The translations under genes were made by a program, and so were the position numbers. This document shows, piece by piece, positions 1,982-24,346 of a stretch of 32,000 nucleotides of DNA. How positions within the stretch are numbered: the first letter of the stretch is position 1; the number at the start of each line of letters is the position of its first letter. The notes below the pieces were generated by a model. It was given only the letters and a program-made list of their open reading frames with translations, searched no databases and was not told the DNA's origin. The DNA comes from Coprobacillaceae bacterium (GTDB lineage Bacteria; Bacillota_I; Bacilli_A; Erysipelotrichales; Coprobacillaceae), in the NCBI GenBank assembly GCA_963675915.1, contig OY780959.1, positions 600,001 through 632,000 of the forward strand, read 5' to 3'.

Positions 1982-2013
1982 ATCTAGATTATACCAAAAA
2001 ATCGGCCAAGTTA

Positions 2014-5792: not shown

Positions 5793-5808
5793 TATAAGTC
5801 TGAACTTT

Positions 5809-5843: not shown

Positions 5844-5981
5844 AATTAAAGTTCGAAATACGTTCTTTTAAAGGTTCTTTAGTAATGTGGAATGGAAAAT
5901 GACTTAAATGAATATTTAGATGAAGAGTTAAAGGGATAAACTATTTTCAAAGTTTATCCCTTAATAATTTGAGGTAAGTAA

Positions 5982-6407: not shown

Positions 6408-6440
6408 TGAAAAATACATAACTATTGAAAGGGGCTTACT

Positions 6441-6809: not shown

Positions 6810-6813
6810 CCTA

Positions 6814-6839
6814 GTGCAGAAAACGGCCGTTTTTTGCAC
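6814..6839 (+). terminator. Possible terminator hairpin
   Basis: GTGCAGAAAACGG/CCGTTTTTTGCAC near-perfect palindrome just after the stop codon. The T-run lies inside the stem, so this is a weak call. Confidence 0.35.
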
Positions 6840-6962
6840 GGTGTCGCAATTAGTGGTGTGAGTGAGGATTTAGACGATATTAGAGTGCTTTAATTGGTGT
6901 TTTTATCAAAGTGCAAAATCGAAAACTAGAATACGTTTTTAGAACAGAGTTGGGAGGTAATT

Positions 6963-7532: not shown

Positions 7533-7614
7533 AGATTTGAGAATCCTCTTTTATTTTTTTCTCATTTTGTATATTATGTGAAAGCGACTGATTTTTTAGG
7601 TAACAGAATATTTT

Positions 7615-8613
7615 ATGAGGAGTGATATAATGATAGCAGGATATGTTCGGGTCTCGACCCAAAGACAAGCAGATGAAGGCGTCAGTATAGAAATGCAAAA
7701 GAATTTAATTGCAAAGCACGCACACATGATTGAAATATTAGGAAAAAATGATGATATTGTATTTTACGTTGATGATGGATTTTCAGGATCATCGTTGCAA
7801 CGTCCCAAAATGGTGGAGTTAATTGATGACATGAAAAGCGGCAAAATCAGTGTTTTACTCGCATACGATCTATCTCGAATTAGCAGGGATCTTTTTGATA
7901 GTAATTCTTTTATGAGAATAGCTCGTAAATATGGAGTTGTAATTAAATGTATCTACGATGATATTGATATTGAAACAGCAGCTAATAGATTCAGTACAAA
8001 TATCAAAATACTAACAAATCAATACGAGCGGGAAAGGGTAATTGAGAGAACTAATGATTCATTAGTATCAATAGCTGATAGTGGTAGATATCCTGCAGGA
8101 GGTAAACCGCCTTTTGGATATTATCGCGGTCCTGACAAGATGGTTTGTATCGATGAGCACGATTCCAAAATAGTAATAAAAATATTTGAAATGATGAGAA
8201 AGGGCTATGACATAAAAGATGTTGTTAGCTATTTGGGATTTGAAACTGACAAGTTGAAAGCCAATAAAGATACGGTGTTGCGTCTCGTCCAAAATACCAA
8301 GTACATCGGTATATACAAGTTCAAAGGCAAAGAGTATGATGACTTGATTCCGCCGATAATTGATAAGAAAACTTTTGAGATCGTAAATCGGTCATTTAAA
8401 AAAATTGAAGTCAAAAAAGACGATAATTACCTCTTTGACGGAATGGTTTTCTGTGAAAAATGTGGGTGCTTGACCAAATGCTCACATTCGATCAATCATC
8501 AAGGTAAAAAATATTATTACTACGTTTGTTATAGTTGTAAAAAGTCGGTGAGTCAGAGCACCCTAGAGAAACATCTGTTCAGTGTTCATATTCATCATAA
8601 CCCCATGTGTTAG
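7615..8613 (+). pseudogene. Large serine recombinase, N-terminal 331 codons, truncated by the IS3 insertion
   Basis: GYVRVSTQRQ catalytic motif, YDLSRISRD, a recombinase domain (GRYPAGGKPPFGY) and a Zn ribbon (CEKCGC…YYYVCYSCKK). The terminal TGT TAG codons belong to the IS3 left end. Confidence 0.85.
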
Positions 8614-8676
8614 GATAGTTGTCGTATAGAGGGATTTGGATTATACTTATAAAAACCGATCCAAGGAGACCAAGAA

Positions 8677-9153
8677 ATGACTAAAACATATACGACTGAA
8701 GAAAAAATAAAATTGATCAATCAAACATTGCCACCACTCAACAAAACTGTTGTTCAGATTGCTGCTGAAACTGGAATCAAAACTTCGACTCTTTATTCCT
8801 GGAAGCGTAGATACCTAAAATGTGCCGTTAATTCCAAAATCAAGGAACGTTACAGCAAGGCTGAAAGATTCCACTTTATCGTCGAATCCGCTTCGTTGAA
8901 CGAACACGAACTTGGAGAATATTGCCGGCAAAAAGGAATTTATCCTGATGAGCTGACAAAGTGGAAAAATGAATTTCTCAATGTTTCCAGTCAAGATGAT
9001 TCTGCGAAGGCCGAATTGCACAAGGAGCGAAGAAAACGTAAAGAGCTGGAAAAAGAACTCAAGCGCAAAGAAAAGGCTTTGGCTGAAGCTGCTGCGCTAC
9101 TGGTTCTTGAAAAAAAGCTCCAAGCAATTTGGGACGAAGAAGAGGAAGATTAA
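8677..9153 (+). CDS. IS3-family transposase OrfA (HTH + leucine-zipper-like, 158 aa)
   Basis: HTH (IAAETGIKTSTLYSWKRRY), then a charged coiled coil (KERRKRKELEKELKRKEKALAEAAALL) ending at the slippery site. Confidence 0.88.
   Translation: MTKTYTTEEKIKLINQTLPPLNKTVVQIAAETGIKTSTLYSWKRRYLKCAVNSKIKERYSKAERFHFIVESASLNEHELGEYCRQKGIYPDELTKWKNEFLNVSSQDDSAKAELHKERRKRKELEKELKRKEKALAEAAALLVLEKKLQAIWDEEEED
9111..9117 (+). promoter_or_regulatory. Programmed -1 ribosomal frameshift heptamer A AAA AAG
   Basis: A_AAA_AAG read in the orfA frame (gaa aaa aag). The orfB frame (-1) is open from 9111, immediately after a TGA at 9108-9110. This is the classical IS3/IS150/IS911 signal. Confidence 0.8.
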
Positions 9154-10232
9154 CCTCTCTCAAATTGCGTAAACTAATCGTTTCATTGATCAAAGACGCC
9201 AACGAAAATGGTGCTCGATTGATTCCGGCGTGTAAAGTGGTTGGAATATCCAAACGAACATATGAACGGTGGACCAATGAAACAGATGTGTTGGCTGACA
9301 AACGAACGACAGCTATTAGACCTGTGCCGGCCAATAAGCTAAGCGATGATGAGCGCCAAGTCGTAATTGACACTGTCAATTCTCCTAAATACAATTCTCT
9401 GCCTCCATCAACGATAGTGCCTAAGTTAGCTGACGAAGGTAAATATATTGGCTCAGAATCAACCATTTACCGCATTCTAAGGGAAAATAAACAATTGAAA
9501 CATCGTGGAAGAAGCAAGGAGCCTCAAAAGCAGGTCCCGACAACACATATTGCCAAAGCACCCAACGAGGTTTGGAGTTGGGATATTACTTGGTTGCACC
9601 GTAAGGATGTTAGGGGAGTTTATTACAAGTTATACATGATAATGGATATTTTCAGCCGGAAGATTGTCGGACATGAAGTGTGGGAAACGGAAAATGCCGA
9701 ATATTCCCAAACTCTTATAAAAAGGACACTGTTAAAAGAAAAGATAAGTGGCAGATCGCTTGTGCTGCATTCAGATAATGGTGGCCCAATGAAAGCATCA
9801 TCATTCCTGGGAACGCTTGAAAAATTAGGTGTGCAAAGCTCGTTTTCAAGGCCGAGAGTAAGTAATGACAATCCATATTCGGAAGCACTGTTCAAAACGC
9901 TAAAATACATTCCTAAGTATCCAACCAGCGGGTTTGAATCACTGGAACATGCCCGAGAATGGACTAGTGAATTCGTCCATTGGTACAATGAAGTCCATTA
10001 CCATAGCGGCATCAATTATGTAACCCCAGGAAGCAGACATCGTGGCGAAGATATCGAGATATTGAAGAATCGCAAAAGTGTTTACGCCCTTGCAAGAATG
10101 AAGCATCCTGAGAGATGGAGCGGTAATACTAAAACCTGGGAATATCAAACAACGGTTGCCCTGAATCCAACCGATGAAGAAAAAAACATGATCCAGAAAA
10201 AGAAATATCAAACAAACCAAATCTACGCATAA
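9129..10232 (+). CDS. IS3-family transposase OrfB (DDE integrase core), probably made as an OrfAB fusion
   Basis: rve-type core: WSWDITWL…, LHSDNGGPM, NDNPYSEALFKTLKY, WYNEVHYHSGINYVTP. It lies in the -1 frame relative to orfA. Confidence 0.88.
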   Translation: MGRRRGRLTSLKLRKLIVSLIKDANENGARLIPACKVVGISKRTYERWTNETDVLADKRTTAIRPVPANKLSDDERQVVIDTVNSPKYNSLPPSTIVPKLADEGKYIGSESTIYRILRENKQLKHRGRSKEPQKQVPTTHIAKAPNEVWSWDITWLHRKDVRGVYYKLYMIMDIFSRKIVGHEVWETENAEYSQTLIKRTLLKEKISGRSLVLHSDNGGPMKASSFLGTLEKLGVQSSFSRPRVSNDNPYSEALFKTLKYIPKYPTSGFESLEHAREWTSEFVHWYNEVHYHSGINYVTPGSRHRGEDIEILKNRKSVYALARMKHPERWSGNTKTWEYQTTVALNPTDEEKNMIQKKKYQTNQIYA

Positions 10233-10265
10233 TTAATTCAAAAAAATGCGTCAACTATATTGACA

Positions 10266-10395
10266 AACTCCGATAATGACAAACAAGAATATAAAGATTT
10301 ATTGATGAAAAGTGTCAAAAATGTAAAATCGAAAATGAAACGAGTCAAAGACAAATATTTGTCGGGTCAATTTAATGAGGCAAAGTATTTTAATG
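10266..10395 (+). pseudogene. Middle fragment of the large serine recombinase, between the IS3 and IS66 #2
   Basis: Reads NSDNDKQEYKDLLMKSVKNVKSKMKRVKDKYLSGQFNEAKYFN, which is like the C-terminal coiled-coil region of large serine recombinases. It continues in frame across the IS66 #2 TSD junction into 13160..13353. Confidence 0.65.
10388..10395. repeat. Target-site duplication TTTTAATG, left copy, IS66 #2
   Basis: Identical 8-mer at 13152..13159, abutting both IS ends. Confidence 0.9.
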
Positions 10396-10463
10396 GTATG
10401 CGTCAAATTGAGCGGTGGGAGAATATTCGAGGGTAAGTGAAAAGGAATCCGGGGGACAGTTTG

Positions 10464-12245
10464 TTACCGTCTTGGGATTCCTTTTTTGAGGCCCTTGATC
10501 TCCTTCGTGGTCAATTGACGCAGGTATGTTGGCAGTTCCTTATTGTAGGGTAGTAGTTTTCTAATTTCTTCTTCATCAGTAGGATCGATTCCCGGCAGCC
10601 TTTCCAGTACGTACTCCATGTACATGTACGGTGACAGCTTGTTTTCCTGGGCGCTTAACAGTATCGAATAGATTATCGCTGCGGCTTGCGCTCCTTTGGG
10701 GCTTGTATAGAATTTACATCGATTCCTTGATACGACAAACGGTCGTATAGCCCGTTCCGTGCTTGAATTGTCGAATGGAACTTTCGGGTTATTAAATACC
10801 TCGCTGAATTCCTTTTCGTGGTTCATCAGATATTTGATTGCCTTAAGCAAGGTTGGTTTCATATTAACTTCGGGCAACAGGATTATTTCTTTAAGGTACG
10901 CTAAAAACTTATCGTAGATTGGCTTTACGACATCATTTCGGCCCTTATGAATATATTGGAAATATTTATCCTGGTTCTTTGAGTATTTTCCCTTAGCAGC
11001 CTGTTCAATTTTGTTTTTTGCTTCGAATACTTTTTTGTAATAGCGATAGCAAGTGTATTCGTAACTTTGATTTTTATCGGTGCCTTTTGGCAGTACATCC
11101 AAGGCTTCCCGGAAATAGCGAAAGGCATGAACGTGGCAAAAACAGTTGGTGACATTATCAAGCGACTCGTAAGCACCATAGGCGTCTGTTACCAGATAGT
11201 GGGAGTAATCACCGATGAAGTCTTCAACAACCCGTTTTGAACGACTAGGATCATAACGGTACAAGATAATTGGTTCGTCATACTGATTGCTCCGTAGAAC
11301 CCAAAGATATGATTTGCTTTGCGCTGGTTTGCCGTCTTCCTTTAGAACCTGGGTGGTGGTTTCATCGCAGTGGATCACTTCCATGGACAACAAGTCTTTG
11401 TGCATGCACTCAAACAACAGGTTAAGATGAACCGATGCCTTGATCATCCAGTTGGCCATATTCTGTCTAGGGATGACGATGTCATTTTCAAGGAAACGTT
11501 TTTCCTGAGCAGCCAGTGGCAAACCCTTTAAATATTTCATGTCCATTATAGTTGCAATCAGTGATGGCGATGCAATGCTTCCCTTGATAACCGGTTGTCT
11601 TCCAGGAACTTTCTTGTACGATGATTTACCTTCCAAGTTGTGTTCCTGACAAGCAACACATTCGTATACCGGTGTACGGTAAATATTCAATTCAACTTTG
11701 GCGGGTGTATAGACAAGTTCTTTTCTTTCATCGTATTTTTTGATTGTCATAGTTGTACCACAAAGATCGCAAACGTCGAAACCATCAGGAGTTTCTTCTG
11801 TAATTATATTGGTTTTGAGATGGTCATAATTGATATGTTTTTCTTTGGGGATTCTAACTTTTCTTTTGTAACCTTTGATTTCCGTAGTTTCGAATTCTTC
11901 GGTTTCAGTAGCATTATCAAAATCAACACCGATTAGACTAAACAGATCAGGACCTTGGTTATATTCCTTAATATTGTTGCGTTGGGAGCTGTAGCGGGCG
12001 TTTTCCAATAATTTGATGTATTCGTTTTTCTGTTGTAGTTCAAGTTTGCGTTCTTTGATTTCAGCTGCCATTTTATCAATATCGGAAGTCAATTTCTTAT
12101 TATCGGCAGATAAATTCTTCTTTTCTTTAATAAGTTTTTCTTTTGAAATACGGTCGGATTCGATTTTGGCATAGAGTTCCTGTTCACGTTGTTTGAACGC
12201 TTCGATAAGTTCTTCTTTTGTCATATCTTCCATCAATTTGATCAC
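10464..12245 (-). CDS. tnpC: IS66-family transposase TnpC (593 aa)
   Basis: Coiled-coil N-terminus, Zn finger (CDLCGTTM…CVACQEH) and DDE core (HCDETTTQVL…, TDAYGAYE, CFCHVHAFRYF). Paralogous to the protein at 410..1981. Confidence 0.9.
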   Translation of the reverse strand: MIKLMEDMTKEELIEAFKQREQELYAKIESDRISKEKLIKEKKNLSADNKKLTSDIDKMAAEIKERKLELQQKNEYIKLLENARYSSQRNNIKEYNQGPDLFSLIGVDFDNATETEEFETTEIKGYKRKVRIPKEKHINYDHLKTNIITEETPDGFDVCDLCGTTMTIKKYDERKELVYTPAKVELNIYRTPVYECVACQEHNLEGKSSYKKVPGRQPVIKGSIASPSLIATIMDMKYLKGLPLAAQEKRFLENDIVIPRQNMANWMIKASVHLNLLFECMHKDLLSMEVIHCDETTTQVLKEDGKPAQSKSYLWVLRSNQYDEPIILYRYDPSRSKRVVEDFIGDYSHYLVTDAYGAYESLDNVTNCFCHVHAFRYFREALDVLPKGTDKNQSYEYTCYRYYKKVFEAKNKIEQAAKGKYSKNQDKYFQYIHKGRNDVVKPIYDKFLAYLKEIILLPEVNMKPTLLKAIKYLMNHEKEFSEVFNNPKVPFDNSSTERAIRPFVVSRNRCKFYTSPKGAQAAAIIYSILLSAQENKLSPYMYMEYVLERLPGIDPTDEEEIRKLLPYNKELPTYLRQLTTKEIKGLKKGIPRR

Positions 12246-12392
12246 TTGAATACACCTCTTTCCACTAGTGGCATTGTAGCATAAAAAGCCCTGAAAGTCT
12301 TGATTTCACGGCAATTTATAAAAGATGTGAATAACTTCAAAAGGCAAAAGATAAACCCACAAAAAAATGTGAATTAATCTTATGCGTAGGGG

Positions 12393-12752
12393 CTATATCA
12401 TTACTGAAATGTCCTTGAATGCCCTTTTCTGTTCAATTGCCAATCCATCAAGCAACCAACTCAACTGACGGATGTCAACAACCATTGAAGTGATATCTTC
12501 ATCACCCTTGGGCCAGAAGAACTTATCTTTATTAAGCAGCTTCTTGGAGTGGATGACAAATCCGTTCTTGTCGAACTCCAGCATCTTGATGCTTTTCTTG
12601 GATCTGTTGCAAAAGATGTACAGGTTATTGGCGGTGGGGTCAAGATACAGGCTGTGGGATACAATCGCGCTTAACCCGGCGTAGCTTTTCCTAAGATCAG
12701 TTGCCCCAGGAACCAAATAGATATTGTCGAAGTCTTCAAACCTAAGCTTCAT
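12393..12752 (-). CDS. tnpB: IS66 TnpB (119 aa)
   Basis: IYLVPGATDLRKSYAGLSAIV…YIFCNRSKKSIKMLEFDKNGFVIHSKKL matches the IS66 Orf2 pattern. Confidence 0.9.
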   Translation of the reverse strand: MKLRFEDFDNIYLVPGATDLRKSYAGLSAIVSHSLYLDPTANNLYIFCNRSKKSIKMLEFDKNGFVIHSKKLLNKDKFFWPKGDEDITSMVVDIRQLSWLLDGLAIEQKRAFKDISVMI

Positions 12753-13104
12753 TGATCATACCTATCAGTTTAGCCAGAGTTTCCAAGTCTGTCGAGTCGT
12801 CAACCGAAATAGTAGCCTTGCCAATATTGACATCGAACCCCTTGGAAACAACTTTACTGTTGCAATCAACAATATCCAGCCTGACAAGAGCTGTAGTAAA
12901 TCCAGAATCCTTAACTTCATCTCTTGAGCGATTCAAATATGGCTTAGAATACTTGTGGTAGCAAAAAGCATTGTACGAAACATCGTTAGCCAAACACCAT
13001 TTTTTAATGGTCAGATCACTATTGGCAGCCTCAGTAAATATCACCTGCCACTGATCATCAGAATAATTCAAATCATCACACCTCCAATTCGATGTGATAA
13101 TCAT
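12742..13104 (-). CDS. tnpA: IS66 TnpA (120 aa)
   Basis: First ORF inside the IS end; overlaps tnpB by 11 nt. Confidence 0.75.
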   Translation of the reverse strand: MIITSNWRCDDLNYSDDQWQVIFTEAANSDLTIKKWCLANDVSYNAFCYHKYSKPYLNRSRDEVKDSGFTTALVRLDIVDCNSKVVSKGFDVNIGKATISVDDSTDLETLAKLIGMINEA

Positions 13105-13151
13105 ACCATCAATGACCTCGACAACCTACCACCGCTCTATTTGACGCATAC

Positions 13152-13159
13152 TTTTAATG
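13152..13159. repeat. Target-site duplication TTTTAATG, right copy, IS66 #2
   Basis: Identical to 10388..10395. Confidence 0.9.
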
Positions 13160-13353
13160 TGATGACAATGCTTGAAGAGGAATTGTTTGAGATACAATAT
13201 AAATTGGTTGGCATTAATTTAAATATCAATAAGGACGAATACAAGAATTTGGTGTTAATGGCTGACAAAAAACAGTTTATCCAAATGCACATCAAATTAA
13301 TTATGATAAATCTAAACAACAAGAAAATATCGAAAATCGAATTTGTTGAATAG
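13160..13353 (+). pseudogene. C-terminal fragment of the large serine recombinase
   Basis: (V)MTMLEEELFEIQYKLVGINLN…KISKIEFVE*. It is in frame with 10266..10395 once IS66 #2 and one TSD copy are removed. The track ORF 12955..13353 is a chimera of IS antisense sequence plus this tail. Confidence 0.7.
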
Positions 13354-13387
13354 AGTATATTTTGTTATCTTTTGATGGCCGACTAAT

Positions 13388-13422
13388 GTAGCCAAGGGGG
13401 ATTCCCTTGGCTACATTTTTTT
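13388..13422 (+). terminator. Rho-independent terminator after the recombinase gene
   Basis: GTAGCCAAGGG-GGATT-CCCTTGGCTAC, an 11-bp GC-rich stem, followed by ATTTTTTT. Confidence 0.8.
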
Positions 13423-13434
13423 GTGCCGGGCATG

Positions 13435-13568
13435 GAATATAAATTGGTGGTGCAAGGCCACTAGTAATTATGGTTGACAAGAGACAGTTTATATTGACTC
13501 ATATTAAAATAATTTGTATAAATTTATATAATAAGAAGATTTCGAATATTGAATTGGTTGGGTTTTAA
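13435..13568 (+). pseudogene. Degenerate second copy of the recombinase 3' end
   Basis: AATATAAATTGGTGG…TTATGGTTGACAAGAGACAGTTTATATTGACTCATATTAAAATAATTTGTATAAATTTATATAATAAGAAGATTTCGAATATTGAATTGGTTGG aligns at roughly 70 percent by eye with 13195..13350. It contains several in-frame stops. Confidence 0.55.
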
Positions 13569-13799
13569 ACTTATTTAGATAATGAGTTATGGTTTTTATT
13601 ATCAACCGGAAAGATTTCCAGTTTATTTATGTAGGGAAATGTATTTTTCTGGAATGAGAGTATGAGCTCTACTCTGTGCCAAGTAGTATTTTCGAACATT
13701 AAAAGCAAATATTTTTGCTCATTAGCTATATAAAAACAGTTGTTTTATACGAAGTTAACATGTTTTATGTATAGTTATGAGAATATTGTTGCCCATGTG

Positions 13800-13828
13800 T
13801 TGAGATTCATGTGTAATTATGCCATAAT
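13800..13828 (+). promoter_or_regulatory. Candidate sigma-A promoter for the methyltransferase operon
   Basis: TTGAGA, a 17-nt spacer, then CATAAT, about 70 nt upstream of the ATG at 13897. Confidence 0.35.
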
Positions 13829-13896
13829 AATTTAGAATATGGTTATAACTAAGGGGATGAATTGATTGAAATTAAGTAAGAGAGGGGCTAGAACCA

Positions 13897-15024
13897 ATGG
13901 CAAATGAGAGATTATCAAATGCTAAAAACGCAAAAAAAGACGAATTTTATACACAATATGAAGACATTCAACGAGAGGTTAATGCATATTTGGAATATGA
14001 CCAAGAAGTATTCAAAGGGAAAACAGTGCTTTTACCTTGTGATGATCCCGAGTGGAGTGAATTTACAAGATTTTTTGCTCAAAATTTTGAAAGATTTGGG
14101 TTAAAAAAACTAATAAGTACAAGCTATGCAACAGAAAGTAAAAAGCTGAGAAATTATCAGCTGTCTTTATTTGAAGAACAGTCGCCTCAGTATGATAGTT
14201 CAAAAACAAAGACTAATGGAAAGATTTTTACTCTTACTCGCGATATAAACGAATCTGGAAATGTTGATATCGATGATTTGGAGTGGAATTATTTGGAGGG
14301 GGATGGTGACTTCAGAAGCAAGGAAGTAATTGAACTCAGAAATGAAGCTGACATAATTGTCACAAATCCTCCATTTTCACTTTTTAGGGAATTTATTGAG
14401 TGGATTTTTGAAGAAGACAAGAAATTTTTAGTTATCGGAAATCAAAATGCAATCACGTACAAAGATATTTTTTCTTTAATAAAAGACAATAAGTTATGGC
14501 TAGGTAATGGATTTAAAGGAAACATTGGTTATTTCAAATCTGTATATGAGGATATTGCAGTTGCATCTCAACATAAAGAAGGGTTTATTCGTATTTCAGG
14601 CGTAATGTGGTTTACAAATATCGAACACGGTAGAAGACATAGGCCCTTACAGCTTATGTCAATGAATGATAATTTAAAATATAGTAGACACAAACAAATT
14701 AAGGATAGTGGCTATATGAAATATGAGAATTATGATGCTATAGAGGTACCGTTTACGGATTCGATTCCATATGATTATTTAGGGATAATGGGAGTTCCAA
14801 TCACATTTATGAGTAAATATTGCCCGGAACAATTTGAAATATTAGGTATGTGTGAAAACCTTGATCTATACGGGTTAAAGACTCGAATATACAGTTCGCA
14901 GGAGTGTAGGCAAAGATATTTTGAGATTTTCGGAAGAAAAGGTACTTATGATTTGAATGCATCTGGAGTTATTAATGGAAAAAAGGTGTATCAGCGAATT
15001 TTAATTAGACGCAAGGAGATTTAG
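13897..15024 (+). CDS. N6-adenine DNA methyltransferase (EcoRI-methylase-like family, 375 aa)
   Basis: [10 protein letters not shown]…[10 protein letters not shown]…, then catalytic [14 protein letters not shown] (NPPF at 14365..14376). RBS AGAGGGG upstream. Confidence 0.85.
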
Positions 15025-15026
15025 TA

Positions 15027-16190
15027 ATGAAAACAGTGTTAAGAACAGATATTTCAATTGAAGATATCTGTAAGGGTTTTGTTTATAATGAGTATGAAGG
15101 AAAAGGTCTTTTTGGGCTATCAGGAAAACTAACTATTCAACCAGAATACCAACGCAATTATATTTACGCAGATGGAAAAAAGGATGTTGCTGTCATTGAG
15201 TCAATACTCAAGGGATATCCTTTGGGCCTGATATACTTCACAAAAGTTGGTGAGGAAAAATATGAAGTACTTGATGGTCAGCAAAGGATCACTAGTTTTG
15301 GGAGATTTGTATCTGGTAAATTTGCAATAAAAAATGAAAACGGAATACCACAATATTTTAGTGGTTTAGCTGGGGACATGCGAGATCTAATAATGAAAAC
15401 CAAACTTACAATTTATGAATGTGAGGGTTCAGAAAGCGAAATTAAAGAATGGTTTAAGACAATCAATATTGTAGGAATACCTCTAAACGAACAGGAGCTG
15501 TCAAATGCTATTCATTCTGGACCTTTTGTGACACTGGCAAAAGAAGAATTTAGTAATAGCCAGAATGCAAATATTCAAAAATGGGGTTCTTATATTTCTG
15601 GTAATGTAATTAGGCAAGATTACTTGCGCACAGCAATTAAATGGGTTAGTAAAGATAACATTGATGCCTATATGAGCAAACATCGACATGACAATAATAT
15701 TGACGAATTAAGAGTATATTTCACTAGTGTTATCGATTGGATATCTAGTGTTTTTGTAGATGTTGAAGATACGATGAAAGGTTTAGAGTGGGGAAAATTA
15801 TATGAGGAGTATCATGGCAATTCTTATAATCAACAGACGGTCTCAAAAATGGTAAAAACATATTTGAAAGATTATTATGTCATTGATAAAAAAGGCATCT
15901 ATGAATTTATTCTTGGCGGTTGCAAAGATTCAAAACTTTTAAACATAAGAGTTTTTAATGAAGTGACGAAGAAAAATGCATATGAAACTCAGACAGAACA
16001 GGCTAAATTAAAAGGCGAATCAAATTGTCCTCTATGCGCCTTGGGAAAAAATAATAACAGTAAACGAATTTGGAAAATTAAAGAGATGGACGCTGATCAC
16101 GTAACTGCTTGGAGCAGAGGAGGTATAACAGACATTACAAATTGTGAGATGTTATGTAAAACACACAATCGTGCAAAGGGAAACAGATGA
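15027..16190 (+). CDS. DUF262 (GmrSD N-terminal / ParB-like) domain protein with a C-terminal HNH nuclease (387 aa)
   Basis: IQPEYQRNY…[10 protein letters not shown] (DGQQR at 15273..15287). C-terminal CPLC…[33 protein letters not shown] is an HNH motif. The start is 2 nt after the MTase stop, and its RBS AAGGAG lies inside the MTase 3' end. Confidence 0.85.
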
Positions 16191-16213
16191 TTTTAGAGGA
16201 TTGTATAGCTCTT

Positions 16214-16243
16214 TTGAATACTTACATTATTTCGGGATAATAT
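16214..16243 (+). promoter_or_regulatory. Possible internal promoter ahead of the helicase gene
   Basis: TTGAAT, an 18-nt spacer, then TAATAT, within the 112-nt gap. Confidence 0.3.
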
Positions 16244-16302
16244 CACTACATTAATTTGATTATACCGAATATTTTAATAAAGATTTTGTCAGGGGGTAAG
16301 AA

Positions 16303-19026
16303 ATGCCAAGTGAAACACAACTAAAAATTGATGGACAAATACGCAATATTGATAAAGTTATATGCCGCAACATTGATGGTATAGGAAATAGTACAAGAGG
16401 GGCGGTATCTCAAGATATTTTGGCACAATTAAGGAACTTCGTTGAACACATAATGCTTAAATTTTATGCTGACGGTCAAGATATAGAAGACAGTTATGAT
16501 AATATTTGTAGTGCAATTAATTTCGTGAAAATTAAAGGAGAATTAAAGGTGTTGTGGAGGTTTCATGATTATCTTCAAATTGTTGCATCTCATTTCACTC
16601 TTGATGAGGAAAATTCGGAACGATTAATGCTAAAATATTACGAGTACCTTTTAAGAATTAAAGGTTTGCTTAAGGAAAAATATGATATTGATGTCTTAGG
16701 TAATATTGAGAAATTTCCTGTAAAAAAAGATCCTAACTTGCAAGAATATTATAATAAGATAGCTAAAAAAATTCAATCTTATCAACTACAAAATGTAGAA
16801 TTGCCAAACAAATATTATATACAAAAAATCAAACCTTTTTTTGTAGGGCAAAATATATTTTATGAGGTCACATTTGCTCCGGCAAATGACTGCGCGAGTA
16901 AATTTAACCGGGCTATAGCTTTTACAAGTATAGATATATTAAAAAATTATTCAGTAAGGTTGAATATAGTAGAGGATAGTATTAAAATTTTTGGAAAAAG
17001 TATGCCAATTTTAGTTATTGTAGGATGGGAGGTTGCAATTAGAAATTGCGAGTATAAAAATTTTACAAGTTTAATCAGAGGTTACCCTGCTAGAACTAGA
17101 TATTCAGAACAAAAGGGAGTTTCAATGTTTTTGTCTCATACGGGGTTAACTTTGCTTGAGGTAGTTGATTTTCCGTGTGAAAATTTTCAAAGAGTCAGAA
17201 ATTGGGCAACACAACATACAAAAGATGTTGTGTTCTTTGATGATTTAGAAGTGTGTCGCCAAATATTGCAAAAAAATAGTCCAGGAAGTAACGTGATAAG
17301 ATATTTACTTTATTGTATGAATAATAAAGTGATAAAAAATCAATATCATCCCAGTGAAAACCATCTATTATCTGGACTTCATCTGAAAAATGGGTGTATA
17401 CCGTTTGATAAAATTCCTTTTAACGCTTCTCTCTTAGGACATAATCCTAAACTTATGGATTTATTTGGGTGTATTGAGACTCAAAATAGACAACATGAAT
17501 TACTGGCGAGATTGGTGAGAAACAATACAGAAATGGAAGGGATTTTATTTACACCTATCAAAGATATTAAGGGATTTGCTGATGTTTCGCATCTAGCGAT
17601 GTTATATAATTCTAAGCTGTGGTCCGGTCATGTTGAAAATAGCAAATTAGTTATAGAGAATGGTCATATTTTTATAAATGGTTATAAGAATGACACGAGT
17701 GTTATTATCGGCAAACTAAAAAAAATGGCTAAGAATGGTGTTCAAAATTATTCTAATTCAGTTTTAGAGTGGTTAAATACTCCAAATAATGGGGTTGATT
17801 GTGATGAGAAGAGAGAGGCTTTAGTTCATATGTTTGATAAATCCAGTGTCGCACTTGTATATGGTGCTGCCGGTACTGGAAAATCGACTTTTATTAATCA
17901 TGTAGCTCATTTTTTTTCAAATAAAAGAAAACTTTTTTTAGCTCAGACTCACCCGGCTGTCGATAATTTGAAACGTCGAGTTAATGCATCCAACTGTGAG
18001 TTTATGACGATTGCAAAATTCTTAAATAAACAAATACCTGTGACTAAATTTGATTTGATAGTGATAGATGAATGCAGTACTGTAAACAATAAGGATATGA
18101 AAAATGTCTTGGAAAAGGGCAAATGCCAACTTTTGGTTCTAGTTGGAGATTCGTATCAAATATCGTCAATACGTTTTGGCAATTGGTTCAGCATAGCGCC
18201 ATATTTTATCTCTAAAAATTCAGTTTTGAATTTGACTATGCCCTATAGAAGTAATAGTGAGAAATTACTTGTTTTGTGGAATAGAGTGCGTAAAATGGAT
18301 GATAGAATTTTAGAGATAATTACTCGCCAAGGATATTCATCAACGTTAGACGATTCTATTTTTGTTGCAAATGAGATAGACGAAATAATACTTTGTCTTA
18401 ATTATGATGGATTATATGGAATTAATAACATCAATCTTTTTTTGCAAGAAAACAATCCTAACACAGCTGTACATTGGGGAATACAGCAGTACAAGATGGG
18501 CGATCCAATTTTATTTAATGACGTTGAACGTTTTTCTCCAATAATTTATAACAATATGAAAGGTCGTATTAAAGACGTTAAGATAATCAAGAGTGAAAAC
18601 AATGCTGAACGTATACAATTTGATATTGAGTTAGATAAGGCAATAAATGGGATGGATGCATTTGGCCAGGATTTTGAGTTATTGGAAAGCGCAAGTAATG
18701 GTAATTCAATTATTAGATTTTATGTAAATAAAGACAAGAGTGTTGACGATGATGATTCTGGGTCCTCAATGTCTATAGTGCCTTTTCAAGTCGCTTATGC
18801 TGTATCTATTCATAAGGCCCAGGGGCTTGAATATAACTCTGTAAAAATAGTCATAACTAACGAAGTAGATGAATTAATTACTCACAATATATTTTATACG
18901 GCTATTACGCGTGCAAGAAATCACTTAAAGATTTACTGGACACCGGAAATTGAAAAGAGAATTTTAGGTAATATTGAACCTAAAAAAAATAATAAAGATG
19001 CTCATCTTTTGAGAAGATACTTATAG
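16303..19026 (+). CDS. 907-aa protein: unknown ~500-aa N-terminal region + RecD/Dda-like SF1 helicase
   Basis: Helicase motifs in order: GAAGTGKST (17863..), AQTHPAVDNL, LIVIDECS, LVLVGDSYQISSI, MPYRS, VSIHKAQGLEYNSV, FYTAITRARNHLKIY. RBS AGGGGG upstream. Confidence 0.85.
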   Translation: MPSETQLKIDGQIRNIDKVICRNIDGIGNSTRGAVSQDILAQLRNFVEHIMLKFYADGQDIEDSYDNICSAINFVKIKGELKVLWRFHDYLQIVASHFTLDEENSERLMLKYYEYLLRIKGLLKEKYDIDVLGNIEKFPVKKDPNLQEYYNKIAKKIQSYQLQNVELPNKYYIQKIKPFFVGQNIFYEVTFAPANDCASKFNRAIAFTSIDILKNYSVRLNIVEDSIKIFGKSMPILVIVGWEVAIRNCEYKNFTSLIRGYPARTRYSEQKGVSMFLSHTGLTLLEVVDFPCENFQRVRNWATQHTKDVVFFDDLEVCRQILQKNSPGSNVIRYLLYCMNNKVIKNQYHPSENHLLSGLHLKNGCIPFDKIPFNASLLGHNPKLMDLFGCIETQNRQHELLARLVRNNTEMEGILFTPIKDIKGFADVSHLAMLYNSKLWSGHVENSKLVIENGHIFINGYKNDTSVIIGKLKKMAKNGVQNYSNSVLEWLNTPNNGVDCDEKREALVHMFDKSSVALVYGAAGTGKSTFINHVAHFFSNKRKLFLAQTHPAVDNLKRRVNASNCEFMTIAKFLNKQIPVTKFDLIVIDECSTVNNKDMKNVLEKGKCQLLVLVGDSYQISSIRFGNWFSIAPYFISKNSVLNLTMPYRSNSEKLLVLWNRVRKMDDRILEIITRQGYSSTLDDSIFVANEIDEIILCLNYDGLYGINNINLFLQENNPNTAVHWGIQQYKMGDPILFNDVERFSPIIYNNMKGRIKDVKIIKSENNAERIQFDIELDKAINGMDAFGQDFELLESASNGNSIIRFYVNKDKSVDDDDSGSSMSIVPFQVAYAVSIHKAQGLEYNSVKIVITNEVDELITHNIFYTAITRARNHLKIYWTPEIEKRILGNIEPKKNNKDAHLLRRYL

Positions 19027-19187
19027 AAATATTAACATTTCTTCAATAATATTTGGTTTACCTTCTGAATTTTAATAAGTATATTGATTTGATAGACGAA
19101 AGTATCTTTGTAACTTATTACAGAGTAAAAAAATAAAATAAGTATACTATGTAGATCAGTTTAATATTTCCAAAAATACTTTAAAGG

Positions 19188-19195
19188 TGTATAAT
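19188..19195 (+). promoter_or_regulatory. Extended -10 element TGTATAAT ahead of the OLD-family gene
   Basis: TGnTATAAT match about 50 nt upstream of the ATG at 19247. The -35 is weak (TTTCCA at 17-nt spacing). Confidence 0.35.
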
Positions 19196-19246
19196 GTCAA
19201 CATAGAGTGTTGTAAAATGCTTATATTTAATATGAGGGGTAATAAA

Positions 19247-21175
19247 ATGATCAAGTTGCTAAATGTCAAAGTAAAAAAGTATAAATGCATTGAAACTGAA
19301 CAAAATTTTAAGGTAGAGGATGATGTGACGGTTCTAGTTGGGATGAACGAATCAGGAAAAACAAGTGTTCTAGAAGCGATAGCTAAAGCAAATTATTTTG
19401 AAGATGACGATATTTTTAAATATAATAAAACTCATGATTATCCACGGAAACAAGTAAAATCAATTAAGAAAAATACAGATGCACCTGTGGCTGTACTCTT
19501 GTCTTATGAATTATCAGATGATTTAGTTGCGCAAATAAGCGATGATCTTGGATTGAAGATTGATTGTAAATATATTGAATATATTGCGAAATACGATAAT
19601 ACGTTCACTGTACTTGGGATAAAGCCGTTATTTTCGGTTAGAGAGTTTTTGGAATTGAAATTAGGTGGTATTAATCTCGAAAATGGTGAATTGGAAAAAA
19701 TCTATAAAGAATTTGAAGTAGTAAAAGATAAAAAAAGTTTTGGCACTACTATCAATTCTTTCAAGAGTTTTTTGCATGAAAATGGGATAACGATGCTGAC
19801 ATCACTAGAAAAATATTTTTCTAATGAAGGTAAATGGGAAAATCCTATAATTTACTATATTTGGAATTCTCATATAAAGCCAAGGATACCCAAATTCATG
19901 TATTATGATGACTACTATTCTTTGCCTTCTAGAATACCACTTGAAGATATTCAAAGGAATAATGCTTTAGAACCATCTAATAAAACGGCAAAAGCGCTAT
20001 TAGAACTTGCCGATATAGACTTAGATAATCTTCTAAAATCGGACGATTTTGAAGATTTTAAGGCTGAACTAGAAGCTACACAAGAAAATATAACCTCAGA
20101 GCTTTTTAAGTACTGGAATACTAATTCAAATCTAAGTATTAGGTTTGATGTAGACACAAAAGAAGTCACAAAGCCAAATAATCAAAAAGTAACCAAACAT
20201 ATACTTGATATAAGGGTTTGGAATGATAGAAATAGGGTATCTTTACCATTGAAGAATAGAAGTAAGGGATTTAATTGGTTTTTCTCATTTTTAGTTTGGT
20301 TTAAAAAAATCCAAGAGGATGATTCAGGTTCATTTATTTTACTATTGGATGAACCGGGCTTAAACTTGCATGCCATGGCTCAGAATGATTTATTAAGGTT
20401 TATTTACGATCTTACTTCTGAATATCAAATCATTTATACAACACATTCACCTTTTATGATTGATTCTGAAAAATTAGATAAAGTTAGGACTGTAGTTGAA
20501 AAGTCTGATGGAACTCATATTTCTGATAGCCTGCAAGAAAAAGATCCGAGCACGCTGTTTCCACTTCAAGCCGCATTAGGATACACTTTAGCGCAAAATT
20601 TATTCGTTTCACCTAATAATCTTATTGTTGAAGGGATTGCTGATTTGACATTTATAAATATTATATCTGGAGTTTTGGAGGCTAAGGGCAGGTCTGGATT
20701 AGATGGTAAAATTACTGTTGTTCCAGTAGGTGGAGCTGATAAAGTTGCAACTTTTGTTTCTTTAATGAGGGGCAATGAATTGAATGTTGTCTGCTTATTA
20801 GATACGTTTAGTGATAAATCTGCTGAAGCGCGTTTACAACATTTGGTTAAAGGAAAAATCATATCAGATAAGAAAATTATGTTTTATGATGAATTCATAG
20901 ATAGTGATTTTGCTGATGTTGAGGACTTATTTACTAAGGATGATTACTTGCATCTATATAACAATAATTTCGGTGAAAGCATATCAATCTCCGATTTGGA
21001 ACCAGATGAACCCATCCTAGATCAGATCAAAAAAATTAGAGGAGGGAAAAATTTTAATCACTATGGTCCGGCTAATTATTTAGCTAAACATATTCAGGAT
21101 GTAAATTTATCTTCTGGAACGTTGGATAGATTTGAAAAATTATTAGAAAAGGTCAATAATAAGTTTGTAAAGTAG
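19247..21175 (+). CDS. OLD-family nuclease-like protein: ABC-type ATPase + C-terminal TOPRIM (642 aa)
   Basis: The start is moved to the ATG at 19247, with RBS GAGGGG 8 nt upstream. Walker A GMNESGKTS, signature-like SKGFNWFFSF, Walker B ILLLDEPG and H-loop YTTHSP. TOPRIM-like LIVEGIADL…VVPVGGADK…CLLDTFSD (about 20609..20836). Confidence 0.8.
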   Translation: MIKLLNVKVKKYKCIETEQNFKVEDDVTVLVGMNESGKTSVLEAIAKANYFEDDDIFKYNKTHDYPRKQVKSIKKNTDAPVAVLLSYELSDDLVAQISDDLGLKIDCKYIEYIAKYDNTFTVLGIKPLFSVREFLELKLGGINLENGELEKIYKEFEVVKDKKSFGTTINSFKSFLHENGITMLTSLEKYFSNEGKWENPIIYYIWNSHIKPRIPKFMYYDDYYSLPSRIPLEDIQRNNALEPSNKTAKALLELADIDLDNLLKSDDFEDFKAELEATQENITSELFKYWNTNSNLSIRFDVDTKEVTKPNNQKVTKHILDIRVWNDRNRVSLPLKNRSKGFNWFFSFLVWFKKIQEDDSGSFILLLDEPGLNLHAMAQNDLLRFIYDLTSEYQIIYTTHSPFMIDSEKLDKVRTVVEKSDGTHISDSLQEKDPSTLFPLQAALGYTLAQNLFVSPNNLIVEGIADLTFINIISGVLEAKGRSGLDGKITVVPVGGADKVATFVSLMRGNELNVVCLLDTFSDKSAEARLQHLVKGKIISDKKIMFYDEFIDSDFADVEDLFTKDDYLHLYNNNFGESISISDLEPDEPILDQIKKIRGGKNFNHYGPANYLAKHIQDVNLSSGTLDRFEKLLEKVNNKFVK

Positions 21176-21399
21176 GATGCAGATTTGATAAAACATTGAT
21201 AATTTTGCAGCTATTTTTGCTATTCGTGTTACGTATCGTAGTTATCACGATTAAAAAGACGATAATTGCATTGCAATTGTAATATAAAAGTAGAAAAACT
21301 ACTAAGAAAATAATTGTCTTAACAGGCTTTCTACTTTTATCATGCTTAAATTTGCATGGAAGCAAATTGATGATTATATCTTGCTTGCAGTGATTGAAA

Positions 21400-21520
21400 G
21401 TAAGCGTCAAATAGATACACGGTTTAAAATTGAGTGCCTCGAGTTAGAATATCATTTTAATTTATAACAGTAGGTACTTTTTATGAATTCTCAAGAGCGT
21501 TATGATTATTAGAATGGTCT
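21400..21520 (+). mobile_element. Solo end / remnant of an IS66 #1-like element
   Basis: GTAAGCGTCAAATAGA IR plus ~105 nt matching the tnpA-proximal end of IS66 #1 (reverse complement of 2630..2747) with scattered mismatches. The tnpA start reads MNSQERYDY* (TGG changed to TAG). Similarity is lost after 21520. Confidence 0.75.
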
Positions 21521-21575
21521 GAGCTTGTCCGTTTGAGGTCCAAAAAACAGCCGCATCCCCAATTGATTACTTTTA

Positions 21576-21583
21576 GATTAACA
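21576..21583. repeat. Target-site duplication GATTAACA, left copy, IS66 #3
   Basis: Identical 8-mer at 24339..24346. Confidence 0.9.
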
Positions 21584-21630
21584 GTATGCGTCAAATAGAG
21601 CGGTGGTAGGTTGTCGAGTTCATTGATGGT

Positions 21631-21993
21631 ATGATTATCACATCGAATTGGAGGTGTGATGATTTGAATTATTCTGATGATCAGTGGCAGGTGATATTTA
21701 CTGAGGCTGCCAATAGTGATCTGACCATTAAAAATTGGTGTTTGGCTAACGATGTTTCGTACAATGCTTTTTGCTACCACAAGTATTCTAAGCCATATTT
21801 GAATCGCTCAAGAGATGAAGTTAAGGATTCTGGATTTACTACAGCTCTTGTCAGGCTGGATATTGTTGATTGCAACAGTAAGGTTGTTTCCAAGGGGTTC
21901 GATGTCAATATTGGCAAGGCTACTATTTCGGTTGACGACTCGACAGACTTGGAAACTCTGGCTAAACTGATAGGTATGATCAATGAAGCTTAG
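21631..21993 (+). CDS. tnpA: IS66 TnpA (120 aa)
   Basis: One aa difference from 12742..13104 (K versus N). Confidence 0.75.
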   Translation: MIITSNWRCDDLNYSDDQWQVIFTEAANSDLTIKNWCLANDVSYNAFCYHKYSKPYLNRSRDEVKDSGFTTALVRLDIVDCNSKVVSKGFDVNIGKATISVDDSTDLETLAKLIGMINEA

Positions 21994-22342
21994 GTTTGAA
22001 GACTTCGACAATATCTATTTGGTTCCTGGGGCAACTGATCTTAGGAAAAGCTACGCCGGGTTAAGCGCGATTGTATCCCACAGCCTGTATCTTGACCCCA
22101 CCGCCAATAACCTGTACATCTTTTGCAACAGATCCAAGAAAAGCATCAAGATGCTGGAGTTCGACAAGAACGGATTTGTCATCCACTCCAAGAAGCTGCT
22201 TAATAAAGATAAGTTCTTCTGGCCCAAGGGTGATGAAGATATCACTTCAATGGTTGTTGACATCCGTCAGTTGAGTTGGTTGCTTGATGGATTGGCAATT
22301 GAACAGAAAAGGGCATTCAAGGACATTTCAGTAATGATATAG
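21983..22342 (+). CDS. tnpB: IS66 TnpB (119 aa)
   Basis: Protein identical to 12393..12752. Confidence 0.9.
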   Translation: MKLRFEDFDNIYLVPGATDLRKSYAGLSAIVSHSLYLDPTANNLYIFCNRSKKSIKMLEFDKNGFVIHSKKLLNKDKFFWPKGDEDITSMVVDIRQLSWLLDGLAIEQKRAFKDISVMI

Positions 22343-22489
22343 CCCCTACGCATAAGATTAATTCACATTTATTTGTGGGTTTATCTTATGCCTTTTGAAG
22401 TTATTCACATCTTTTATAAATTGCCGTGAAATCAAGACTTTCAGGGCTTTTTATGCTACAATGCCACTAGTGGAAAGAGGTGGATTCAA

Positions 22490-24274
22490 GTGATCAAATT
22501 GATGGAAGATATGACAAAAGAAGAACTTATCGAAGCGTTCAAACAACGTGAACAGGAACTCTATGCCAAAATCGAATCCGACCGTATTTCAAAAGAAAAA
22601 CTTATTAAAGAAAAGAAGAATTTATCTGCCGATAATAAGAAATTGACTTCCGATATTGATAAAATGGCAGCTGAAATCAAAGAACGCAAACTTGAACTAC
22701 AACAGAAAAACGAATACATCAAATTATTGGAAAACGCCCGCTACAGCTCCCAACGCAACAATATTAAGGAATATAACCAAGGTCCTGATCTGTTTAGTCT
22801 AATCGGTGTTGATTTTGATAATGCTACTGAAACCGAAGAATTCGAAACTACGGAAATCAAAGGTTACAAAAGAAAAGTTAGAATACCTAAAGAAAAACAC
22901 ATCAATTATGACCATCTCAAAACCAATATAATTATAGAAGAAACTCCTGATGGTTTCGATATTTGTGATCTTTGTGGCACAACCATGAAAATAAAGAAGT
23001 ACGATGAAAGAAAGGAACTTGTCTATACTCCTGCCAAAGTTGAATTGAATATTTACCGTACACCGGTATACGAATGTGTTGCTTGTCAGGAACACAACTT
23101 GGAAGGTAAATCATCTTACAAGAAAGTTCCTGGAAGACAACCGGTTATCAAAGGAAGCATTGCATCGCCATCACTGATTGCAACTATAATGGACATGAAA
23201 TATTTAAAGGGTTTGCCACTGGCTGCTCAGGAAAAACGTTTCCTTGAAAATGACATCGTCATCCCTAGACAGAATATGGCCAACTGGATGATCAAGGCAT
23301 CGGTTCATCTTAACCTGTTGTTTGAGTGCATGCACAAAGACTTGTTGTCCATGGAAGTGATCCACTGCGATGAAACCACCACCCAGGTTCTAAAGGAAGA
23401 CGGCAAACCAGCGCAAAGCAAATCATATCTTTGGGTTCTACGGAGCAATCAGTATGACGAACCAATTATCTTGTACCGTTATGATCCTAGTCGTTCAAAA
23501 CGGGTTGTTGAAGACTTCATCGGTGATTACTCCCACTATCTGGTAACAGATGCCTATGGTGCTTACGAGTCGCTTGATAATGTCACCAACTGTTTTTGCC
23601 ACGTTCATGCCTTTCGCTATTTCCGGGAAGCCTTGGATGTACTGCCAAAAGGCACCGATAAAAATCAAAGTTACGAATACACTTGCTATCGCTATTACAA
23701 AAAAGTATTCGAAGCAAAAAACAAAATTGAACAGGCTGCTAAGGGAAAATACTCAAAGAACCAGGATAAATATTTCCAATATATTCATAAGGGCCGAAAT
23801 GATGTCGTAAAGCCAATCTACGATAAGTTTTTAGCGTACCTTAAAGAAATAATCCTGTTGCCCGAAGTTAATATGAAACCAACCTTGCTTAAGGCAATCA
23901 AATATCTGATGAACCACGAAAAGGAATTCGGCGAGGTATTTAATAACCCGAAAGTTCCATTCGACAATTCAAGCACGGAACGGGCTATACGACCGTTTGT
24001 CGTATCAAGGAATCGATGTAAATTCTATACAAGCCCCAAAGGAGCGCAAGCCGCAGCGATAATCTATTCGATACTGTTAAGCGCCCAGGAAAACAAGCTG
24101 TCACCGTACATGTACATGGAGTACGTACTGGAAAGGCTGCCGGGAATAGATTCTAGTGATGAAGATGAAATCAGGAAACTACTACCATACAATAAAGAAC
24201 TGCCAAGATATCTGCGTCAATTGACAGCGAAGGAAATCAAAGAACTAAAAAAAGGAATCCCAAGACGGAAATAA
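22490..24274 (+). CDS. tnpC: IS66-family transposase TnpC (594 aa)
   Basis: Near-identical to 10464..12245. GTG start with RBS AGAGGTGG upstream. Confidence 0.9.
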   Translation: MIKLMEDMTKEELIEAFKQREQELYAKIESDRISKEKLIKEKKNLSADNKKLTSDIDKMAAEIKERKLELQQKNEYIKLLENARYSSQRNNIKEYNQGPDLFSLIGVDFDNATETEEFETTEIKGYKRKVRIPKEKHINYDHLKTNIIIEETPDGFDICDLCGTTMKIKKYDERKELVYTPAKVELNIYRTPVYECVACQEHNLEGKSSYKKVPGRQPVIKGSIASPSLIATIMDMKYLKGLPLAAQEKRFLENDIVIPRQNMANWMIKASVHLNLLFECMHKDLLSMEVIHCDETTTQVLKEDGKPAQSKSYLWVLRSNQYDEPIILYRYDPSRSKRVVEDFIGDYSHYLVTDAYGAYESLDNVTNCFCHVHAFRYFREALDVLPKGTDKNQSYEYTCYRYYKKVFEAKNKIEQAAKGKYSKNQDKYFQYIHKGRNDVVKPIYDKFLAYLKEIILLPEVNMKPTLLKAIKYLMNHEKEFGEVFNNPKVPFDNSSTERAIRPFVVSRNRCKFYTSPKGAQAAAIIYSILLSAQENKLSPYMYMEYVLERLPGIDSSDEDEIRKLLPYNKELPRYLRQLTAKEIKELKKGIPRRK

Positions 24275-24338
24275 ACTGTCCCTGGATTCCTTTTCACTTA
24301 CCCTCGAATATTCTCCCACCGCTCTATTTGACGCATAC

Positions 24339-24346
24339 GATTAACA
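24339..24346. repeat. Target-site duplication GATTAACA, right copy, IS66 #3
   Basis: Identical to 21576..21583. Confidence 0.9.

Follow-up and report, generated by a model that had tools for sequence, protein, structure and literature searches.

The 32,000-nucleotide stretch of the Coprobacillaceae bacterium genome analysed here (contig OY780959.1 of assembly GCA_963675915.1, positions 600,001–632,000 of the forward strand; hereafter the window) contains at 16303–19026 on the plus strand a complete gene for a 907-amino acid protein, which was found to be an ordinary, intact member of PDC-S53, a phage-defence candidate family catalogued in PADLOC. The ~445 N-terminal residues of this protein form a family-specific, three-part orphan module fixed to a C-terminal superfamily 1B (SF1B) helicase. 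The protein matched the PDC-S53 profile of PADLOC-DB v2 (PDLC05035) with 1270.4 bits and E = 0, residues 8–906 aligning with positions 3–893 of the 900 in the profile, and the N-terminus alone scored 602 bits. The window protein thus corresponds to PDC-S53 over its whole length, N-terminal module included, and has its single-gene architecture of ~900 residues; no difference was seen at the sequence level. The gene was defined by the list of open reading frames (ORFs), the PDC-S53 hidden Markov model and a ribosome-binding site, the latter being a Shine-Dalgarno-like AGGGGG at 16291–16296, 6 nt upstream of the ATG. The family is thus already catalogued, though it is uncharacterised; no activity, structure or mechanism of PDC-S53 is described in the searchable literature, and NCBIfam (June 2026) has no model for the family.

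The C-terminal part of the protein is an SF1B helicase of the RecD/Pif1/Dda type with intact motifs. Almost all the Pfam matches to the 907-residue protein fall at residues ~502–885 and belong to Viral_helicase1, AAA_30, AAA_19 and UvrD_C_2, of which AAA_30, Viral_helicase1 and UvrD_C_2 exceed the Pfam cut-off. The helicase core (17803–19026) was delimited from these and the NCBIfam matches, from PDB sequence matches and from the conserved motifs. The Walker A sequence GAAGTGKS occupies residues 521–528 (nt 17863–17886) and Walker B D589-E590 lies at nt 18067–18072; these are followed by GDSYQ (GDxxQ) at residues 615–619, HKAQGLE (HKxQGxE) at 837–843 and TAITRA at 866–871. The motif-defining residues are at least 97% conserved across all the helicase motifs in a set of 74 non-identical full-length sequences (the window protein and 73 homologs), on which the conservation values given below are also based. 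The nearest solved relatives in a PDB sequence search were bacterial Pif1 (8bns), RecD and RecD2, the first being the structure of a thermophilic bacterial Pif1 (PMC9964779). The polarity of the helicase is presumably 5'→3', judging from its homology to RecD2 and Pif1.

The RecD2 model TIGR01448 of NCBIfam aligned residues 445–889 with its positions 253–698 at a sub-threshold score of 105 bits; the similarity to RecD in NCBIfam was also sub-threshold, and a sub-threshold Pfam match to RsgA_GTPase begins at residue 465. Because residues 445–500 align with the pre-core region of RecD2, the part left without assignment is approximately residues 1–445. Residues 446–500 (17638–17802) were modelled as a hairpin and then helices that connect to the helicase core, with a predicted local distance difference test (pLDDT) score of ~73–87; as this segment is already aligned to the RecD2 family model, it probably belongs to the helicase scaffold.

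Searches of Pfam, NCBIfam and PDB sequences did not connect the N-terminal module to any known domain. Residues 1–510 alone gave nothing better than E = 0.13 against Pfam and no match against NCBIfam, and a PDB-sequence search with a profile of 36 member sequences (alignment A2, restricted to the N-terminus) gave nothing better than E = 0.27. When the 36 members of A2 were scanned against Pfam, no family recurred except for P-loop matches in the members that reach Walker A; matches to KwaB and KaiA, in two of the 36 members each and at E > 0.01, were regarded as noise. The same residues 1–510 used as query retrieved 537 database proteins at E ≤ 1e-3, well above what chance would yield. The best 120 of these are 44–68% identical to the query, and those that extend into the helicase carry the same SF1 helicase domains, the others being shorter fragments with no recorded Pfam domain. 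In an exhaustive search the A2 profile matched 1223 cluster representatives (clustering at 50% identity), and for 486 the E-value was 1e-30 or lower. Among the best 150 of the 1223 representatives, short fragments aside, the module was N-terminal in proteins of ~900 residues, and it was never found on other domains.

The module is strongly conserved, the mean identity of the 73 homologs to the window protein being 52% over residues 1–500 against 62% over the helicase. In residues 1–500, 75 columns are at least 95% conserved. These include, in the N-terminal domain A, S36, Q37, R107, K111, Y112, N134 and Y149, all of them invariant, and D143 is 99% conserved. In the central barrel they include Y172, E188, K200, R203, Y216, W242 and R247, which together with K177 and F207 are invariant or near-invariant, and just past it the invariant E250. 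In the following domain C they include the invariant R319, N341, Q347 and E399, and also D369, C390 and E410, which along with H380 and N436 reach 96–99%. The aromatic residues Y112, Y149, Y172 and Y216 are invariant and W242 is 99% conserved, and the cysteines C249 and C390 are conserved to 95% and 97%, respectively. A sensor of phage proteins would be expected to evolve fast, so that conservation as high as this between phyla speaks against such a role and fits better with nucleic-acid binding or recognition, or with catalysis.

The structure of the module was predicted with confidence. The AlphaFold2 model of residues 1–510, made from a 68-sequence alignment, had a pLDDT of 88.2 and a predicted template modelling score of 0.84, and a separate model of residues 245–500 had a pLDDT of 92.9. 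The first part, domain A (16303–16782, residues 1–160; delimited from the model and from conservation), is a six-helix bundle spanning residues 8–159 with helices at 8–27, 37–55, 65–76, 79–96, 102–127 and 144–159. It is followed by a five-strand barrel resembling the oligonucleotide/oligosaccharide-binding (OB) fold (16813–17037, residues 171–245; modelled at 171–244), whose strands were assigned by DSSP on the model at 171–181, 184–193, 204–208, 217–229 and 232–244 and which is also marked by weak Foldseek matches and by conservation. The third part, domain C (17038–17637, residues 246–445; modelled from 248 to ~445), is mostly helical with small hairpins, as seen in the separate model, and is likewise conserved.

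Foldseek comparison of the 1–510 model gave nothing at E ≤ 1e-3, either in the PDB or in the viral library BFVD. The best PDB match was TTC5, a protein with tetratricopeptide repeats (TPR) and an OB domain in a similar helical-then-barrel order (E = 0.022; template modelling score (TM) ~0.1). It was followed by small OB-fold proteins, namely the single-stranded DNA-binding protein SSB, RPA70N, Rim1, editosome OB proteins and PltB, with target-normalised TM of 0.4–0.5. In BFVD the top matches were uncharacterised phage proteins (best E = 0.0045), then phage SSB and OB proteins, the SSB of Thermus phage OH3 covering the barrel with probability 1.00, target-normalised TM of 0.51 and E = 0.06. Matches of the OB/SSB/RPA type to the barrel thus recur in both libraries and are weak, with probability up to 1.0 and E ≥ 0.06 for SSB, RPA and OB proteins. 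The barrel superposes weakly on SSB, RPA70N and phage SSBs at 9–15% identity, whereas over the whole module the TM is ~0.1, and the barrel of the window protein lacks a helix between strands 3 and 4. An OB-like assignment of residues 171–244 is plausible from the model; it is not statistically secure, because no match reached E ≤ 1e-3 and because that helix is absent. The domain C model (245–500) had as its best PDB match NTHL1/endonuclease III, at E = 0.19 and TM 0.21.

The N-terminal ~450–500 residues are a real, strongly conserved and confidently folded module, in which the small barrel of DNA-binding type is the one part with likeness to known proteins. An earlier note on this DNA, made from its letters before any database search, had placed Walker A at residue ~521 (nt 17863), which is exact, and had described the ~500 residues before it as unrecognisable, not of low complexity and holding conserved-looking aromatic and cysteine positions, fused to an SF1 helicase in a defence setting. 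The searches and the alignment agree with it on each of these points, the aromatic and cysteine positions being Y112, Y149, Y172, Y216, W242, C249 and C390. It had also proposed a Foldseek comparison of an AlphaFold model and an alignment of homologs; the former matched no characterised domain in the PDB at E ≤ 1e-3, and the latter showed the region to be conserved and so not filler. Its view that novelty would sit in this region went too far, since the N-terminus is part of a family that PADLOC already lists, albeit an uncharacterised one.

Taken together, we hold with moderate confidence that the module is a recognition and loading platform with a barrel that holds single-stranded DNA (ssDNA), joined to a 5'→3' SF1B motor acting on foreign DNA, and that immunity results either when this DNA is unwound or stripped or when a neighbouring nuclease cooperates. 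In such a mechanism the module would recognise the nucleic-acid substrate and load or gate the motor. The invariant aromatic and basic residues of the barrel, which are those expected of a single-strand-binding surface, would hold ssDNA, and the flanking helical domains may supply specificity, regulation or contacts with partners. The motor would then translocate 5'→3' along intermediates of foreign DNA, for example ssDNA tails, structures that arise in replication or recombination, or restriction products, and immunity would come about by unwinding or stripping these, or by feeding an adjacent or cooperating nuclease. We infer the ssDNA binding by the barrel, the polarity of the helicase, the anti-phage activity and the way in which immunity is executed; the analysis itself shows the family membership, the domain layout, the conservation, the intact helicase motifs, the lack of any known nuclease signature and the setting among defence or mobile-element genes.

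Several observations weigh against this proposal. The protein has no visible nuclease or effector domain that would account for the arrest of a phage by a helicase alone. The OB identity of the barrel falls short of E ≤ 1e-3 in Foldseek, its strands 3 and 4 have no helix between them, and for domains A and C no relative was found at all; because of this, A and C may have a catalytic or signalling role. The invariant or near-invariant E188, E250, E399, E410, D369, H380 and C390 are also compatible with an active or metal site. Furthermore, the putative defence role is read from genomic association. A literature search found neither a paper nor an experiment on PDC-S53, and the family does not appear in the text or the accessible supplements of the PADLOC 'embedded defences' preprint, nor in two papers testing PADLOC candidates. 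PHROGs, moreover, files the relatives as 'Dda-like helicase'.

The last point bears on the possibility that the protein is a helicase for replication, recombination or maintenance of mobile elements (phages, plasmids or integrative and conjugative elements), with the module as a platform binding an origin, a fork or a partner. Against the 'Dda-like helicase' family phrog_325 the full-length protein gave 2.1e-87 and its isolated N-terminus 1.3e-36. In PLSDB 17 plasmid records match as well, 6 with at least 80% of the query covered, and two temperate phages have copies. Conservation this high, moreover, is seen more often in core enzymatic machinery than in the sensors of defence systems. However, of 50,697 phage records only 2 carry the gene (Terrisporobacter phage TPDSL_ph1 and Erysipelothrix phage phi1605). 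The replication genes of each phage, among them its own polymerase, primase and helicase, are on the opposite strand, and the gene adjoins methylases or a type IIS restriction enzyme, with an annotated repressor also nearby in TPDSL_ph1. Such a position is the usual site of cargo expressed in the lysogen. The bacterial copies likewise have type I restriction-modification, GmrSD, AbiJ, AIPR and KAP genes as neighbours, not replication genes. A mobile-element helicase of this kind is therefore considered unlikely.

Relatives were found in at least 569 species in a scan of one genome per species, distributed over Bacillota, Thermotogota, Gamma- and Epsilonproteobacteria, Desulfobacterota, Bacteroidota, Patescibacteria, Elusimicrobia and Synergistota. 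The gene is a single protein of 897–954 residues in ~75 of 85 related loci, the others being contig-truncated, split or frameshifted, or short at the N-terminus. In several metagenomic copies (L003 at 8001–10837, L004 and L005) the gene is split into an N-terminal ORF of ~535–540 residues and a helicase ORF. Near Walker A, where the two ORFs meet, L003 has a frameshift and L004/L005 a short deletion; the split therefore reflects gene decay or faulty assembly, and a natural two-gene division of module and helicase was rejected.

The genomic context was compared across 86 loci, the window and the 85 related ones. In 74 of 79 loci the gene directly upstream has the same orientation as the helicase gene, and in 42 it lies within 100 nt. 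Very often it is a restriction or abortive-infection gene (HsdR, HsdS, GmrSD, YgjP-like, Eco57I-type, Dcm, AbiJ, AIPR, KAP or AAA_13), a few upstream genes being housekeeping, and HsdR is found within 5 kb in 21 of the 86 loci. No single partner is conserved, none being common to more than 16 of the 86 loci. In a Clostridia clade (16 loci within L031–L079) and in both phages, a protein of 278–313 residues is always encoded 12–58 nt upstream of the helicase. This partner (gene coordinates 8149–8985 in L086 and 8137–8973 in L087) has no Pfam match; its N-terminal ~140 residues match the PADLOC LmuA model PDLC03857 (2e-14) and weakly HamA, and it carries a strongly conserved C-terminal motif, RTKIRNLYVKLHPD...FPYDAFIDDW. 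Its presence indicates that pairing with another protein is open to members of the family, and the LmuA-like protein and the helicase possibly constitute a two-gene variant of PDC-S53. Homology between this partner and the N-terminal module was considered and rejected (hhalign probability 1.4%).

In the window four genes of the same direction, of which that of the helicase is the third, follow one another with short gaps and no terminator-like site between them. It follows an EcoRI-type N6-methyladenine methyltransferase (13897–15024, plus strand) and a DUF262/GmrSD_N protein with an HNH nuclease (15027–16190, plus strand), both identified with Pfam and PADLOC. It precedes an OLD-family ATPase (AAA_15) with an OLD-like TOPRIM nuclease (19187–21175, plus strand), identified with Pfam and with the Old, AriA and GajA models of PADLOC. 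This arrangement would suit a multi-gene system in which the helicase works with the upstream DUF262-HNH protein and methylase, with the downstream OLD protein in a Gabija-like pairing, or with both. The order methylase, DUF262-HNH, helicase recurs in a Candidatus Kaiserbacteria metagenome-assembled genome (L035, with the methylase/DUF262-HNH pair at 268–2770) at 50%, 65% and 55% protein identity, and the constant partner of the Clostridia and prophage clade points the same way. Against it, the neighbours are highly variable across the loci, an OLD-like neighbour was found as just one marginal match in the other 85 loci, the GajB models match the P-loop region only, at ~25 bits, and PADLOC classes the family as single-gene. 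A multi-gene system is thus regarded as quite improbable. The OLD gene is context only and not a conserved partner of the family, and the methylase and DUF262-HNH genes are also context, their partnership with the helicase being not proven.

Candidate catalytic and metal sites in the N-terminal module were examined through conservation, predicted fold and profile matches. The earlier note had pointed to a possible degenerate PD-(D/E)xK motif at residues 224–252, a reading that neither conservation nor the predicted fold supports and that was rejected: E224 is variable (N in 32, H in 9, D in 8 and E in 6 of the 74 sequences), D225 is 57% and K252 30% conserved, and only E250 is invariant. In the AlphaFold2 model this ED...EYK stretch begins in the fourth strand of the barrel and ends just past the barrel, where the following helix starts, and the fold is not the α-β-β-β-α-β core of such nucleases. 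The string R44-N-F-V-E-H49 in helix 2 of domain A resembles the HEPN motif Rx4-6H; R44 is 78% conserved, being replaced by K, T, M or I, and H49 is 92% conserved. The conserved cysteines and histidines C21, C249, C318, C365, C390, H49, H380, H398 and H443 do not have CxxC-type or classical metal-site spacing in the sequence. No nuclease profile of Pfam or PADLOC matched the window protein or its 36 relatives, apart from a PADLOC Cas4 match (E = 0.008) that falls on the all-helical residues 65–169.

These data bear on the possibility that the module is an effector delivered by the helicase and itself a new catalytic domain; domain A might be a divergent RNase of the HEPN kind, for instance, or domain C a new nuclease or glycosylase. 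Although S36, Q37, R107, K111, D143, E188, E250, D369, H380, E399 and E410 are invariant or nearly so, R44-x4-H49 recalls HEPN, endonuclease III/NTHL1 is the top, non-significant structural match of domain C and the protein has no other effector domain, this is decidedly improbable, because R44 varies and its motif lies mid-helix with no HEPN match in Pfam (36 members) or Foldseek, no HEPN, nuclease or glycosylase profile matched the window protein or the 36 relatives, the endonuclease III likeness has a TM of 0.21 and a probability of 0.23, and the Cas4 match lies on helices.

The protein was further compared with the known helicases and helicase-containing defence systems. RecD2, RecD, Pif1 and Dda share the SF1B motifs with the C-terminal ~400 residues of the window protein, whereas none of them, including RecD2 with its helix-hairpin-helix N-terminus, has a counterpart of the N-terminal 445 residues, and the RecD2 score lies well under the TIGR01448 cut-off of 500 bits. 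The likeness to Hachiman, Gabija and Nhi is that of a helicase in a defence island. HamB of Hachiman is a superfamily 2 helicase, in contrast to the SF1B helicase here, and PADLOC found no HamB match in the window protein. With regard to a Hachiman- or Lamassu-like pairing, the position taken by the LmuA-like partner in the 16 loci and two phages is occupied in the window by the DUF262-HNH gene. GajB of Gabija is UvrD-like and belongs to SF1A, unlike the SF1B enzyme of the window, and the OLD nuclease adjacent in the window is a pairing not conserved across the 85 loci. In Nhi a nuclease is fused to the helicase, whereas none is fused here, and no Nhi match was found with PADLOC.

Features of the neighbouring genes were also recorded. 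The DUF262-HNH nuclease was scored by PADLOC as a type II restriction endonuclease with 279 bits. Type IV enzymes, which depend on modification, are the more familiar setting of GmrSD-type domains, and a methylase-protected DUF262-HNH pair is noteworthy given this usual association. The OLD-family protein scores alike against the Old, AriA and GajA models of PADLOC, neither a helicase nor an AriB-type protein was identified as its conserved partner, and either GTG at 19187 or ATG at 19247 may be its start codon.

The helicase gene of the window, typical of its family, lies in a defence cluster of mobile character. The four-gene cluster is flanked by two inverted copies of an IS66-family insertion sequence, 98% identical and ~2756 bp long, at 10396–13151 (minus strand) and 21584–24338 (plus strand), which encode a 120-residue ORF, TnpB_IS66 and DDE_Tnp_IS66. 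The left copy has an 8-bp target duplication, TTTTAATG, at 10388–10395 and 13152–13159, and the right copy another, GATTAACA, at 21576–21583 and 24339–24346. As each copy has its own target duplication, the two are independent insertions; the layout resembles a composite transposon, and joint movement of the cluster was rejected on account of the separate duplications, no sign of it being seen. The GC content of the cluster is 0.29–0.35 against 0.40–0.47 in the right-hand flank, and this AT-richness fits with recent horizontal acquisition.

Positions 1–13000 and 13000–22000 of the window are rich in genes of mobile elements. A third IS66 copy is present at 410–2373, two serine recombinase/resolvase genes at 6963–8613 and an IS3-type pair at 8677–10232. 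A 104-nt inverted repeat (89%) links 2626–2729 with 21417–21520 and contains a ribosome-binding site followed by the start of an ORF (MNAQERYDYW...). In the 21417–21520 copy, which adjoins the right-hand IS66 copy on its left side, a stop codon interrupts the reading frame, and this copy looks like what is left of the 5' end of another element of IS66 type, a relative of the copy at ~410–2729. The ORF of 1011 residues at 2757–5792 (plus strand) matches a YobI-like P-loop NTPase model only at positions 160–362 of 363, from residue 7. Since only the last ~200 model positions are matched and an IS66 copy is its direct neighbour, the ORF seems to have lost its N-terminal part.

A broader suggestion, that domains A and C and the barrel are a new combination of folds with an activity of their own, either as a sensor of nucleic-acid structure or modification or with a catalytic centre of Glu, His and Cys residues, is tentative and on balance doubtful. 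If it were true, a lone SF1B helicase would suffice for immunity in hundreds of species of at least eight phyla, by a mechanism unlike that of the known helicase-nuclease systems. In spite of the wide occurrence of PDC-S53, half of the protein belongs to no family of Pfam or NCBIfam, lacks a relative of solved structure and has no function described for it, and the combination of confident models without a structural neighbour and dozens of invariant polar and aromatic residues makes it a clean target for study. The ligand or reaction of the module would explain what a nuclease-less helicase does in immunity or in the biology of mobile elements, and would give annotation a new domain family.

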